Numbered from the stretch's first letter, positions 7,501 to 54,402 are shown. The stretch is DNA of 64,000 nucleotides from Escherichia phage WPEC2 (PV691511.1), one strand, 5' to 3'. Notes: generated by a model from the sequence alone, not told the origin. Numbers and translations are program-made.

Positions 7501-8082
7501 ATGGCAGAACTGTTCTATACGGGAGTTGGAAGTAGAGACATATCCGAAGAAGAGTGGGCTTTGATGGTAGGCATAGGGAAATGGCTTTCAAACCTTGGGT
7601 TTAAATTAAGGTCTGGGAAGGCAGAGGGTAGTGATTCTGCTTTTGAAACAGGTGTCCAAGAGTCTGAAAATCCTACTAACAAGGAGATTTATGTTCCTTG
7701 GGAAAATTTCAAAGGTAATCAGATTCCAGGGGATGTTATTGTTCTTGCAAAACCAGATACAATGAACTATGCTATCTCTGTGCAATGGATCAAAGATGTT
7801 CACCCAGCCTATGAAAAGCTTAAGCAGGGTGCTAGAAAATTGCACCAACGTAATGTGCATCAAGTGTTAGGTAGAGATTTGGAAAATCCTGCTCCATCCT
7901 GTTTCTTGTTGGCTTGTGCTAATACTGATAAACATGGAGATGCAAAAGGTGGAACAGCTACGGCTTGGAAGATAGCTAAAGCCAATAATGTTCCTTGTTT
8001 AAACATTCGTGGGAAAACAAAACAAGAGATTTACGATTTTCTACGACCTTTGGTAATGAGGGCAATAACAAGTGATTCCTAA
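7501..8082 (+). CDS. Rossmann-fold protein, DprA/Smf/SLOG-like
   Basis: ATG at 7501 after GAGGTG; GVGSRD and SGKAEGSDSAFETG glycine-rich motifs. Confidence 0.45.
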   Translation: MAELFYTGVGSRDISEEEWALMVGIGKWLSNLGFKLRSGKAEGSDSAFETGVQESENPTNKEIYVPWENFKGNQIPGDVIVLAKPDTMNYAISVQWIKDVHPAYEKLKQGARKLHQRNVHQVLGRDLENPAPSCFLLACANTDKHGDAKGGTATAWKIAKANNVPCLNIRGKTKQEIYDFLRPLVMRAITSDS

Positions 8083-8584
8083 ACGTAAACGTGGTGAACA
8101 AAGAACAAACTTGGCAGAAATCTTAGATTACAACATGGTTAATGATGTGACAAAAGAAATTCTGCCTGTTGTAGAAGATATTCTTCAAAGAGGGTTACGA
8201 TTCTGCTCGGATCGGGTGCATTTCATGTGGACACATAAAAGTGACTCCGCTTTGAATTTCTATCCTTTGGATTATACTCTGAACAATACAGAGATGAAAG
8301 ATATCAACAAATACTTAATGGGATATAAAGATATAACCGAAACCGTTCTTGGAGAATTGGCAGAAATCTTGGCTAACGATATCCTTAGAAATATTAATAA
8401 GGCTCTTGACAGAAGCCCAGCAGGAGTAGTAGTATCTTTTGCTGTGCCAGATATGGTTAAATATGAGTCTACAATACCTAATAAAGCTTATGCCTTTCTT
8501 CGGAGAGACGTTCGTGGAAATGTGTTGGAGATGGAGTCAAACTACAAGATTGAGGAGGTTTTATGGCAGAGTTCAGATCAGTAA
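8072..8584 (+). CDS. hypothetical protein
   Basis: 170 aa ORF in plus-strand operon. Confidence 0.45.
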   Translation: MIPKRKRGEQRTNLAEILDYNMVNDVTKEILPVVEDILQRGLRFCSDRVHFMWTHKSDSALNFYPLDYTLNNTEMKDINKYLMGYKDITETVLGELAEILANDILRNINKALDRSPAGVVVSFAVPDMVKYESTIPNKAYAFLRRDVRGNVLEMESNYKIEEVLWQSSDQ

Positions 8585-8853
8585 CAAGTTTTGAAAGTAA
8601 CTTCGTTACCGCTTGGGAAGCTTGGGATGAAATGGGTGTTGGGGAACTTTATTTTTACAATGTAACACTACGTCCAGAGTATGCTTACCTGGTACCAGAA
8701 GGAACAGTTCAAATTGGCATGTATCTGTCTTCTCAAGACGGTGTTGTTCAATTTGAGTTTTATTCAAACACAACGGACAACGAATTTACATATCGTGCAT
8801 TTCATGTCAACATGTCTTTAGGAGAGGAGAAATTTTATGACGACCAAGTTTAA
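8563..8853 (+). CDS. hypothetical protein
   Basis: 96 aa ORF. Confidence 0.4.
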   Translation: MAEFRSVTSFESNFVTAWEAWDEMGVGELYFYNVTLRPEYAYLVPEGTVQIGMYLSSQDGVVQFEFYSNTTDNEFTYRAFHVNMSLGEEKFYDDQV

Positions 8854-9034
8854 AACAGTAGAAGAAGCCGTAAAAGCAGCTTATGAGGCTTTAGCGGAAG
8901 CAGAGCAGTTAGCAGATGAGACTGGTAAAGGTTTCCGTTTCTCCCCTGAATATGGGATGGGTGGCTATTATGATCCAGAAGATGAAAATGAGAATACTGG
9001 AACAAATTGGCATCCATCTTCTTTAAGTTGTTAA
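8837..9034 (+). CDS. hypothetical acidic small protein
   Basis: 65 aa ORF; GGAGAGGAG upstream. Confidence 0.4.
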   Translation: MTTKFKTVEEAVKAAYEALAEAEQLADETGKGFRFSPEYGMGGYYDPEDENENTGTNWHPSSLSC

Positions 9035-51719: not shown

Positions 51720-53173
51720 GTTTCCTCCTCTCTCATTATTCCACCTGCTTGGTTGATAGCACTTAAGACGATAGCCAAATCCTCGCGCAGGAAGGTTTCA
51801 CTATGACCATCTTTCATGTGCAAGCGTTCTACACAGCCAATAGACGGTAGAATCTGATCAGTCTTAGACTTTAGCTTACTCTCTAACGCCCTGCAAGCCT
51901 GATAGGACGGCAGATCGAACAATGCTATACGGCGCATAGAGTAATTGTTGTTTGCATTCTGCCCTTTGATCCTGATATCGCTGTCCTTTGCAATCCCCAA
52001 CTTGTAAGCTCCCGTGTCTTCTCCGTACTCATCAAGAATAATATTGATGTAAAATTCTTGCATATTTCTGTTCTTACAGCTTGGACAACCTTTCCCATTG
52101 AGATAATCGGTAGGTGTGATCGTTTGCTCTCCATGCTCCCTACACAGATATTTAAACTTTCTGTTATTGCTTACCTTATCAATGAATCCTATAAATTGAT
52201 CCCCTCGTTCCTGGCAAGCTTTGGTCATACGGTAGGCCCATTGTTCAGGAGTGTAATGATAATATTTAGAACAACGGCAAGGAAGGCCACCCCTTTTCAA
52301 ATGACTCATCTTCATCTCAAATTTATTATCGCATAAGCCTTCTTTACAATAATCATCCTCTGCACATATAGGACATTCTACAATCCAGTAAACCTGACGA
52401 CCTAATCTATCTACTCTATCGCTACGATAATATTTACGCTCTACATTATCAGGACAAGCTTTTATAAAATCTTCAACATGTTGCTTATCCTCCATTGTAT
52501 TCCTTTGTTTCGTCATTTCTCTTTGACAACCGTAGCATCCAGTTCCTTGTTTAGCACTGTTTACAGTGGTAGTGCACCACTGACCATGAACCTTACACTC
52601 ACAAATCAACTTAGTGCGGGAACCGTTCCACGGTTCCACATAGCCTCTAACAATCCAGGGTTTTTCTTTATAGGCTTCTTCTACTTCTTCTTTATGTTTC
52701 TCCCACGCAATCGATGTTCTTTCTCTGTTTGCTTCTCCCATACACTTCCTGCATCCACTCCCGTTTTTCGCAGAAGATATAGAAGTAGACCTCCACTCCC
52801 CATGTAAAGCACAACAACAAACCAGTTTAGTATTCCATCCTTTCCATTCTCCGTGCCATCCTATAACAGTCCAAGATTTACCTGCCTGATTGTAAGTGGT
52901 TTGCACTTCTTCTTTATGTTGCTCCCATGTTTTTGATTTGTTTATAGATACTGCTTTCTTTATAATCTCCCTACAGCATTTTGGACAACCCCTCCCTCGT
53001 TTAGCGGTATTTATGCTTGTTGTTTTCCATTCTCCGTGCAGAGCACAGATGCATCTAAGTTTAGTTTTATTGCCGTTCCACGGCTCAATATAATCTACAA
53101 CAGTCCAACACTTACCTTGATAAGCTTGTTTTATATCTGTTTTATATTGTTCCCAAGTAACTATTTTTGGCAC
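51713..53173 (-). CDS. protein with three ~60-aa Cys/His-rich repeats plus C-terminal domain
   Basis: 486 aa; three tandem units each with W..Y...CW.V...PWNG..TKL.C.C..HGEW.T....AK.G.GC..C. Confidence 0.5.
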   Translation of the reverse strand: MPKIVTWEQYKTDIKQAYQGKCWTVVDYIEPWNGNKTKLRCICALHGEWKTTSINTAKRGRGCPKCCREIIKKAVSINKSKTWEQHKEEVQTTYNQAGKSWTVIGWHGEWKGWNTKLVCCCALHGEWRSTSISSAKNGSGCRKCMGEANRERTSIAWEKHKEEVEEAYKEKPWIVRGYVEPWNGSRTKLICECKVHGQWCTTTVNSAKQGTGCYGCQREMTKQRNTMEDKQHVEDFIKACPDNVERKYYRSDRVDRLGRQVYWIVECPICAEDDYCKEGLCDNKFEMKMSHLKRGGLPCRCSKYYHYTPEQWAYRMTKACQERGDQFIGFIDKVSNNRKFKYLCREHGEQTITPTDYLNGKGCPSCKNRNMQEFYINIILDEYGEDTGAYKLGIAKDSDIRIKGQNANNNYSMRRIALFDLPSYQACRALESKLKSKTDQILPSIGCVERLHMKDGHSETFLREDLAIVLSAINQAGGIMREEETC

Positions 53174-53262
53174 ACATATCCCCTTTATCTATTAGTGCAA
53201 GCCTACAACAAAGGAATAACTAAAATCCCTCCATAAGAAATGCCCCTTGCGGGGCATCTTTA

Positions 53263-54402
53263 TTAGAACACACTACCTAGTGTAGTGGAACGTTGTGTTA
53301 CAGGCTCCAGCACCACTCGCAGAGTGTTTCCTGGTGTAGTGCTCATAACCAGAATCTTACCACCTTCAATCAGATCACAAGTTAGACCATCAGCCGTTGC
53401 ACATAGATCAATATGTGGATCACCATCTTCATCCAGGATAACATAACTGTTGGTTTCCATTGCTTCCACTTCATCATCTTTCAAACTTTGTAGATAGATG
53501 TTCAGGGAACAAGCACCCGACAAAAACTTAGTAGGGGTGAAGTCGTGCCAGTTATTGATCCAATTCACCTTCAGAGTTTTGCCATTAGCTACGATAGAAG
53601 CCACATTCCATTTAGCATCGTTGCCTAAAGAAATACCCATCATTTCAAGACATTCTTTAAAAGTCATTTTTGGATAGAAATTCAATTCTTCTACAATACC
53701 TTGAATAACATCAAAAGACAACTCTGTACTAACATCCCATAAACGTTGGAAGTTATCTACGTGCTTTTTATTTACCAAGTTCTTATCCAAGTAATCTAAC
53801 ATAGTTTCACTAGACAGTTTATCGTAATTGAAACTGTAATAGATACGACTAGGACGGTTTACAAAATACTCCGAGATATAGCCACTATTTTTAGTGAGGA
53901 TGTAAAGTTTATTCCCACTTCCTGTTCCATCCAACAAGGTCAACAGTGCTTCCTGATCTTCTTTCTTAGCGTACACTTTATCAAATTCGTCAAATAAAAC
54001 AACAGCACGATCTGTAATTTTACTCATAAATTCTAAGAAGCCAGCATCTGTGTAAGGCTGTGTAACCAAAATGGTTGGAATACCTAAACCTTCTGTGGAC
54101 ATTAGAGACATGCTAATCAGTTTAGCTAACATCGTCTTACCACTGCCCTTTGTCCCTGTCAGTAACACCCCAGTATTTTTACCTTCTTTACTACGACGAG
54201 CAAATGTTTTAATAACATGTGCGGCGCGGTCTTTAGTTTCCCCATAAAGAGTGTTCGGAAGAGAGAAACTTTCGCCACGCACTAAAGAGTAGTTACCGTG
54301 CGGATCGCAGTTGACAACCCAAACTCCAGCAGGAAGTTTATTAGCTTCAACACCATATTCCTTATTTACAACAGCCACATCTCCAAAAATAGTGTATTTC
54401 AT
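53263..54402 (-). CDS. AAA+/P-loop ATPase
   Basis: 379 aa; Walker A GTKGSGKT and Walker B VVLFDEFDK. Confidence 0.6.
   Translation of the reverse strand: MKYTIFGDVAVVNKEYGVEANKLPAGVWVVNCDPHGNYSLVRGESFSLPNTLYGETKDRAAHVIKTFARRSKEGKNTGVLLTGTKGSGKTMLAKLISMSLMSTEGLGIPTILVTQPYTDAGFLEFMSKITDRAVVLFDEFDKVYAKKEDQEALLTLLDGTGSGNKLYILTKNSGYISEYFVNRPSRIYYSFNYDKLSSETMLDYLDKNLVNKKHVDNFQRLWDVSTELSFDVIQGIVEELNFYPKMTFKECLEMMGISLGNDAKWNVASIVANGKTLKVNWINNWHDFTPTKFLSGACSLNIYLQSLKDDEVEAMETNSYVILDEDGDPHIDLCATADGLTCDLIEGGKILVMSTTPGNTLRVVLEPVTQRSTTLGSVF

Follow-up and report, generated by a model that had tools for sequence, protein, structure and literature searches.

Four genes of Escherichia phage WPEC2 (PV691511.1), encoding a sirtuin (SIR2), a NADAR-domain protein, a SLOG-fold protein and an AAA+ ATPase, are on balance probably independent accessory genes lying in three units on two strands, rather than components of one system. 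They were analysed within a 64,000-nucleotide stretch of the phage DNA, hereafter the window. We favour separate roles because the genes sit in separate units, their shared neighbourhoods are confined to one phage subfamily, the sirtuin gene has a history of its own, the NADAR protein AdfN of a related phage works alone, and no further NAD-related domains were found. The original prediction, made from the DNA without database searches, had grouped the four as NAD/ADP-ribose-related genes of a phage-like element that could serve counter-defence or an NAD-linked modification pathway. All four open reading frames (ORFs) were present in our ORF list at the predicted positions and on the predicted strands (Table 1), confirming the observation of the four genes; the domain calls are correct, the finding is ordinary and largely already known, and the interpretation is partly supported. 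Hidden Markov model searches confirmed Pfam domains for the sirtuin, the NADAR protein and the ATPase and gave no Pfam match for the SLOG protein, while the expected catalytic residues were present in the sirtuin (N116, D118 and H135) and the NADAR protein (E40, K47, E127 and D132).

That the element is a phage is clear from megablast comparison of positions 7000–15000 and 49500–55500, which are 100% identical to Escherichia phages WPEC1, WPEC4 and WPEC6. The same segments share 99.7% identity with Mt1B1_P17 (Phapecoctavirus) and 96–99.7% with many Phapecoctavirus genomes, including those of the phAPEC8 type. The window is therefore part of a ~150-kb virulent Escherichia coli myovirus of the genus Phapecoctavirus (phAPEC8-like), subfamily Stephanstirmvirinae.

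Among the four genes, NADAR alone has a function backed by experiment, obtained on a close relative. The protein scored 123.8 bits against PF08719 (gathering cut-off 35.1) and 113.5 bits against the NCBIfam model TIGR02464 (cut-off 73.7), confirming the predicted domain. Its closest solved structure in PDB sequence searches was the Phytophthora NADAR (8BAU, E = 8e-15), and in that alignment E40, E127 and D132 fall on PnNADAR E43, E125 and D130, positions at the catalytic centre or in contact with ADP-ribose. The protein shares the NADAR fold, and a glutamate and a lysine seven residues apart, with the AdfN proteins of Bas60 (phage PaulScherrer), T4 (gp30.3) and Bas32; E40 and K47 correspond to E36 and K43 of T4 AdfN, the mutation of which weakens counter-defence (PMC11825919). 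With E127 the protein falls in the YbiA-type group, whose hallmark is a glutamate at the matching position (PMC11125620), whereas T4-type phage NADARs have histidine and DarG1 aspartate there.

Compared with bas60_0111, the window NADAR is 58% identical over 172 residues and has the same flanking AAA and CapR-repeat genes. In the corresponding record (MZ501100; phage PaulScherrer, locus tags bas60_, genus Justusliebigvirus of the same subfamily), an 'FtsH-like' AAA gene, a 467-aa hypothetical gene and a 'YbiA-like N-glycosidase' are consecutive, so that the order of ATPase, CapR-repeat gene and NADAR is shared, together with phage subfamily and host species. The two loci differ in that 42% of the NADAR residues are changed and that the window has two extra small ORFs between the CapR-repeat gene and NADAR. 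LeRoux and co-workers reported that the NADAR of Bas60–62 (AdfN of Bas60) neutralises DarT1 in E. coli: with it, three DarTG1-sensitive phages regained plaquing, no other phage factor was needed, and DarTG2 was not countered (PMC11825919). Removal of guanine-linked ADP-ribose and counteraction of DarT1/DarTG1, with no activity against DarTG2, have been demonstrated for the AdfN proteins of Bas60, Bas32 and T4 (PMC11825919). Given the identity and synteny to the Bas60 protein together with these experiments, the window NADAR is very probably, by orthology, an anti-DarTG1 DNA ADP-ribosylglycohydrolase. The predicted counter-defence role is thus well supported for NADAR, and for NADAR only.

The ATPase lies upstream of NADAR in a minus-strand cluster that runs from the ATPase through a CapR-repeat gene and two small ORFs to NADAR. 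In the ORF list, neighbours among the last four genes share 7, 23 and 14 nt, and a terminator scan found no convincing minus-strand terminator between the genes of the cluster. Besides its PF00004 match, the ATPase carries a Walker A motif (GTKGSGKT, residues 83–90), a Walker B motif (VLFDEFD, 135–141) and an NRPSR arginine motif of the second region of homology (182–186), so the P-loop assignment held. PDB sequence matches were weak (Rix7, p97 and Afg2). Members of the family occur in 396 phage records, among them those of Enterococcus, Bacillus and jumbo phages, and the window protein is 64% identical to the product of the Bas60 'FtsH-like' gene upstream of AdfN. These features point to a classic AAA+ ATPase of the protein-remodelling type. 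Nothing ties it to NAD: contrary to the original grouping, it has no NAD-related feature, and AdfN of Bas60 acts without other phage factors.

We considered the ATPase and NADAR as a functional pair and set this aside as unsupported, because their adjacency is limited to Stephanstirmvirinae, the gene between them resembles a length-variable homing-endonuclease remnant, and AdfN of Bas60 alone suffices. In a Vequintavirinae phage, NADAR has no neighbouring ATPase of the window type. The intervening protein has five CapR-homology repeats and matches PHROGs groups named 'endonuclease'; no nuclease domain was detected in it. The CapR domain serves a domesticated homing endonuclease for DNA binding. 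The length of the intervening protein differs among phages (335 aa in Mt1B1_P17, 467 aa in Bas60, 486 aa), a pattern to be expected of a homing endonuclease in decay or under domestication. Neither of the two small ORFs matched Pfam.

The SLOG protein was identified only through PHROGs (phrog_768 'DprA-like', 2e-62) and structure prediction; it had no match in Pfam (E ≤ 0.01), NCBIfam, PADLOC or PDB sequences. Its AlphaFold model (mean predicted local distance difference test score, pLDDT, 95.7) has a three-layer Rossmannoid fold matching solved SLOG proteins. We collected 276 homologues and aligned 61, in which GVGSR (residues 8–12, after strand 1), RSGKAEGSD (37–45; RSGxAxGxD) and GGTAT (150–154; GGT) were invariant, as was an additional family-specific HxRNxxQ helix. 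The catalytic PGGxGTxxE of LOG proteins is absent and is replaced by KGGTATAWK, with no glutamate at the catalytic position. Within the SLOG superfamily (MoCo carrier, the DprA Rossmann domain, YpsA, LOG and the ThsA SLOG domain), the protein is thus set apart by its single domain, its missing LOG glutamate and its HxRNxxQ helix. The suggested analogy to SLOG domains of NAD-depleting defence systems was not borne out: the protein is standalone, and its nearest structures are MoCo-carrier and DprA proteins, not ThsA.

The 'DprA-like' part of the call stands as far as the SLOG fold and the PHROGs match go, and fails in that there is neither a Pfam DprA match nor the domains that flank DprA. A true DprA-type recombination mediator, binding single-stranded DNA and having no role in NAD or ADP-ribose chemistry, would agree with the weak match of the family profile to DprA 3MAJ in the GxAxGxD region (E = 0.022), with precomputed PF02481 matches of some homologues and with the proximity of ribonucleotide reductase and PhoH, both DNA-metabolism genes, in other phages. 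We think this unlikely for a single 193-aa domain that lacks the SAM and winged-helix flanks and lies about as close to MoCo-carrier as to LOG-type proteins. Gene order also favours NAD/ADP-ribose chemistry over a DprA role. Although no neighbour is common to more than 19 of the 80 viral loci with a SLOG homologue, 10 of the 80 have a NadV-like NAPRTase, a Macro gene and the SLOG gene in that order on the same strand (L046, L054, L056, L057, L066–L069, L074 and L084, all IMG/VR contigs of ~35–97 kb, mostly ~90 kb). This order is the strongest contextual link of the SLOG family to NAD/ADP-ribose metabolism, and it lends support to the idea, already published, that viral SLOG proteins work on molecules derived from NAD/ADP-ribose.

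The SLOG gene belongs to a plus-strand unit that runs from ~6.2 kb to a terminator-like hairpin and also holds a metallophosphatase, a 170-aa ORF and a T4 Vs.4/Acb2 homologue. The metallophosphatase, an early gene of the unit, has a Bas60 orthologue two genes from the DprA-like gene. The 170-aa ORF had no Pfam, NCBIfam or PADLOC match, and its overlap with the SLOG gene recurs in Bas60 genes 0192/0193. Vs.4/Acb2 proteins sequester CBASS cyclic nucleotides. The homologue in the window, which the original prediction did not mention, aligns to 7UQ2 over nearly its full length and carries the Pfam Acb2/Tad1 hairpin domain; it is the clearest sign of counter-defence functions in the SLOG block.

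The sirtuin matched PF02146 at 80.5 bits (gathering cut-off 24) and has the intact motif that was predicted (GAGLSADSGIRTFR at residues 10–23). Across 40 phage homologues, this G10–R23 motif, N116, D118, H135, F175-F176-x-E178 (in FFGE, residues 175–178) and G203/S205 were invariant. E. coli CobB was both its best PDB sequence match (1S5P, 7.6e-19) and, in a Foldseek search of the PDB with the predicted structure (pLDDT 90.3), its best structural match (E = 3.8e-17; template-modelling score 0.69–0.83); the top 50 structural neighbours were all deacylase-type (CobB, Sir2Af, SIRT5, SIRT2 or Sir2Tm). The likeness to CobB and the class III/U deacylases covers the NAD-binding motif, the Asn/Asp/His set, the FGE motif and the fold. 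However, identity to CobB is only ~26%, the canonical TQNID is replaced by TTNVD, all NCBIfam CobB-type matches fell below threshold (86 bits compared with 320 for the CobB equivalog), and the protein belongs to a phage-specific clade. It also lacks the usual four-cysteine zinc site: its only cysteines, C42 and C204, lie outside the small domain (~137–172), where a small beta-sheet is still predicted.

Likeness to NAD-depleting defence SIR2 proteins, which the original prediction had invoked, was not supported. With ThsA, DSR1/2, SIR2-HerA and SPARSA the sirtuin shares the SIR2 Rossmann core that binds NAD+, but it matched no family in the PADLOC defence models at E ≤ 0.01, none of these NADases was among its top 50 structural neighbours, and no sensor or partner of their kind (SLOG, HerA, pAgo or a large C-terminal domain) is fused or adjacent to it. 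The sirtuin gene is coupled only to a 161-aa ORF, the SLOG gene lying 5 kb upstream in another unit. We consider the protein most likely active with NAD+.

With the 161-aa ORF, the sirtuin gene forms a two-gene cassette bracketed by terminator-like hairpins. The ORF matched no family in Pfam, NCBIfam or PADLOC; its homologues lie directly upstream of SIR2 in five related loci, at 32–66% identity. The sirtuin is 96% identical to a Bas60 protein (L004:6575–7387), whereas neighbouring proteins are 37–75% identical. Synonymous divergence (dS) from Bas60 is 0.30 for the sirtuin gene and 1.4–3.8 for its neighbours, and this difference indicates a recent exchange of the gene between genera; the ratio of nonsynonymous to synonymous divergence (dN/dS ~0.08) indicates purifying selection.

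The sirtuin family is large, with 1804 protein-database matches and 989 phage records, including T5-like and rV5-like phages, and identity does not fall below 46% between its T5-like, rV5-like, Mydovirus and phAPEC8-like members. It is the viral sirtuin clade described by Iyer, Burroughs, Anantharaman & Aravind in 2022 (PMC9503650), with which it shares homologues in rV5-like, Mydovirus and T5-like (SP15-type) phages and a calcineurin-like phosphatase nearby. The neighbourhoods in the 59 viral loci we surveyed agree with the contexts described there (PMC9503650). In T5-like contigs, the gene directly after the sirtuin gene encodes a HAD 'Swiss-army-knife RNA repair' phosphatase (28 loci; for example, L118); in rV5-like contigs (L093, L101, L102, L104, L105, L140 and L141), a 433-aa gene follows it and NADAR lies ~6 kb downstream on the same strand. 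The window differs in that its sirtuin gene is not beside an RNA ligase, kinase, cREC or MazG gene and sits in the two-gene cassette instead.

Two genes upstream of the cassette, one assigned by PHROGs as a 'DNA methyltransferase' and unmatched in Pfam, the other for a 217-aa protein, stay upstream of the sirtuin gene in distant contigs (both in L121 and L135, the methyltransferase-like gene also in L132), and these may be the real functional partners of the sirtuin. In some T5-like phages the sirtuin gene is seemingly truncated, with coverage of 45% in MZ501103 (SelmaRatti) and 13% in NC_027356 (DT57C), suggesting that it is dispensable in at least some lineages. Literature searches turned up no experimental study of either this phage sirtuin family or the SLOG family.

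Two roles for the sirtuin on its own have to be weighed. It could mimic host CobB and, by NAD-dependent lysine deacylation, reset the acylation state of host or phage proteins for phage growth, with no part in defence. In favour of this role, E. coli CobB and SIRT5-class deacylases are closest to the sirtuin in sequence and fold, and every deacylase catalytic residue is invariant among the 40 homologues. Given the missing zinc-binding cysteines typical of deacylase sirtuins, the NCBIfam score far under the CobB equivalog cut-off and the dispensability of the gene in some T5-like phages, the role is possible but doubtful. For exactly this viral clade, a KptA-like role in RNA repair was proposed in 2022 (PMC9503650). 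Such a KptA/Tpt1-like enzyme would move ADP-ribose to the 2'-phosphate at broken tRNA or RNA ends, letting the phage RNA ligase seal damage from host anticodon nucleases. This would suit the HAD phosphatase that is the next gene in the 28 T5-like loci, and the phosphoesterase of the window phage itself adjoins two genes that align with the Bas60 RNA ligase and polynucleotide kinase. The RNA-repair genes are more than 20 kb from the sirtuin gene in this phage, however, and the sirtuin retains a deacylase-type FGE motif and a CobB-like fold; we regard this hypothetical role as somewhat unlikely.

A single NAD-linked modification pathway, the other idea of the original prediction, is very unlikely in our view. 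In such a pathway the sirtuin would make an ADP-ribose adduct or O-acyl-ADP-ribose, NADAR and the SLOG protein would process it, and the ATPase would assist. That the SIR2, SLOG and NADAR domains all handle NAD or ADP-ribose chemistry is in its favour, and SIR2, SLOG and phosphatase genes do stay within 6 kb of each other throughout Stephanstirmvirinae-like loci. Yet SIR2 and NADAR are 34–37 kb apart and on opposite strands, terminator-like hairpins stand between the SLOG and SIR2 units, the sirtuin gene has been exchanged between genera independently of its neighbours, and AdfN of Bas60 works alone. Within 10 kb of the SLOG genes we found NADAR in 0 of 80 loci and SIR2 in 7 of 80, all seven from this phage group. 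A shared SLOG/SIR2/NADAR neighbourhood was accordingly rejected, being conserved nowhere outside Stephanstirmvirinae among 139 viral loci, and Pfam searches found no other NAD/ADP-ribose domain (Macro, Nudix, NadV or ADP-ribosyltransferase) among 70 further window ORFs. In the sister genus (Bas60), NadV, PRPP synthetase and macrodomain genes are found elsewhere in the genome.

The genes can be called dispersed only with qualifications: the ATPase and NADAR genes share one tight cluster, a single plus-strand block of 8 kb holds both SLOG and SIR2, and part of the DNA between the two gene groups is seemingly misassembled. Terminator-like sites are enriched in the region of the 9830–9847 hairpin (14 observed compared with 5.6 ± 2.2 in shuffles).

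Several points weigh against three independent units and against the assignment of NADAR. Promoters and terminators here are consensus matches only. The 6-kb proximity of SIR2, SLOG and phosphatase genes, like the ~6 kb between NADAR and SIR2 in rV5-like contigs, amounts to a loose co-location that may still reflect some functional coupling. The identification of bas60_0111 as AdfN of Bas60 rests on locus tags and on its being the sole YbiA-like annotation over the 90 kb examined outside positions 501–60425, a stretch that may hold a second NADAR. E. coli YbiA and T4 gp30.3, each expressed alone, failed to rescue DarT1 toxicity in one study (PMC11125620); NADAR specificity in vivo is not predictable from domain membership alone, and at 58% identity a shift in specificity from the Bas60 protein is possible. 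Support for the proteins of this phage itself is computational throughout.

If the three units do act separately, each would have its own task. In the minus-strand cluster, the AdfN-type NADAR would remove DarT1-placed ADP-ribose from guanine in phage DNA, so that replication continues, a step demonstrated for the orthologue; the ATPase, which AdfN does not need, would serve in protein remodelling. In the ~6.2–9.85-kb unit, the Vs.4/Acb2-type sponge most likely soaks up CBASS cyclic-nucleotide signals, and the SLOG protein most likely has an adenine-nucleotide or ADP-ribose-derived ligand, which it would bind and might also cleave; this view comes from its fold, from invariant residues of pocket type and from the NAPRTase, Macro and SLOG gene order in other phages. 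In the SIR2 cassette, the zinc-less CobB-like sirtuin most likely consumes NAD+ in deacylating or ADP-ribosylating a macromolecule, which could be a protein or, as proposed in 2022, 2'-phosphate RNA ends. A bolder and, we think, improbable reading joins the sirtuin, as a counter-defence or repair enzyme, with a SLOG protein that destroys or sequesters ADP-ribose-derived signals (for example, those of Thoeris), AdfN and the sponge in a layered arsenal against nucleotide-based immunity. The sirtuin might then ADP-ribosylate or deacylate a host immune protein, or clear the 2'-phosphate RNA ends left by anticodon nucleases. In this reading it travels between phage genera as a two-gene cassette with terminator-like hairpins on both sides, under strong purifying selection.

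Table 1. Positions of the four genes, their unit neighbours and flanking signals in the window.
Feature	Position	Strand	Evidence or remark
Calcineurin-like metallophosphatase ('NinI-like')	6442–7185	+	Pfam Metallophos 2.7e-13; phrog_246
Standalone SLOG-fold protein (annotated 'DprA-like'), 193 aa	7501–8082	+	
170-aa ORF	8072–8584	+	Start overlaps SLOG stop by 11 nt (ORF list)
T4 Vs.4/Acb2 homologue	9046–9321	+	PF24729 2e-16; PDB 7UQ2 'Vs.4' E = 3e-28
Terminator-like hairpin	9830–9847	+	Ends SLOG/Acb2 unit; promoter-like site 9853–9881 follows
'DNA methyltransferase' (PHROGs)	11201–11926	+	
217-aa protein	11926–12579	+	
Terminator-like hairpin, 11-bp stem	12595–12619	+	Just upstream of two-gene SIR2 cassette
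161-aa ORF	12638–13123	+	Stop overlaps SIR2 start by 16 nt (ORF list)
CobB-like sirtuin without zinc-binding cysteines, 271 aa	13108–13923	+	PF02146 1.9e-22
Terminator-like hairpin	13931–13948	+	8 nt beyond SIR2 stop codon
NADAR protein (YbiA-type glutamate)	50623–51165	-	PF08719 1.1e-35; likely orthologue of the Bas60 AdfN
Two small ORFs (51152–51376 and 51354–51719)	51152–51719	-	Overlapping stop/start codons join CapR-repeat gene to NADAR
CapR-homology repeat protein, five repeats	51713–53173	-	PF21817 1.5e-27 in 5 stretches; phrog_681/559 'endonuclease'
Classic-clade AAA+ ATPase, 379 aa	53263–54402	-	PF00004 29.9 bits (cut-off 21.2)

Compared with Mt1B1_P17, the window is a mosaic, with junctions at 6118|6119, ~31,946, ~41,279, ~44,509 and ~63,054; the 6118|6119 junction was absent from every phage record searched, including WPEC1, WPEC4 and WPEC6. 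Arrays with a 77-bp period occupy ~37,034–41,279, ~44,509–49,416 and ~58,833–59,600 and consist of different blocks, each duplicated two to three times at 99–100% identity and in both orientations. Most reference-matching blocks derive from few reference positions, which coincide with rearrangement breakpoints. As 77 is a common de Bruijn k-mer size, these stretches, ~9 kb of which lie within the span of the four genes, look like a k = 77 assembly artefact and not biology. We rejected the 77-bp units as tRNA genes, since ARAGORN found none and the units are fragments of coding sequence; the program found no tRNA gene anywhere within the window. All four genes lie in segments collinear with reference genomes at 93–99.6% identity, so the conclusions on them are unaffected by the misassembly; in the reference, SIR2 and NADAR are ~33.6 kb apart.

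Other genes of the window are three or four that resemble glycosyltransferase genes (one matches a TET-associated glycosyltransferase weakly), a cell-wall hydrolase gene and the tellurite-resistance-type genes TerD and TelA (188–3332, 4034–4555, 4654–5256 and 43392–44591, all on the minus strand). A vWA-TerF-like domain is also among the tellurite-resistance-type matches.

Much of this gene set has been described before. Identical or near-identical genes are annotated as Sir2, DprA-like and ATPase in GenBank phage records, where NADAR is usually 'hypothetical' or carries the misleading name 'GTP cyclohydrolase II'. Phage SIR2, SLOG and NADAR genes were set out systematically as players in NAD/ADP-ribose conflicts in 2022 (PMC9503650), and in 2025 experiments confirmed that the NADAR of the sister genus counters DarTG1 (PMC11825919). 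The four are thus accessory genes that had already been annotated in a well-known group of E. coli phages, with no new system among them. What remains of interest is the role of a highly conserved sirtuin in ~1,000 phage genomes and the ligand of the phage SLOG proteins, and the E. coli phages of this group are convenient for studying both.

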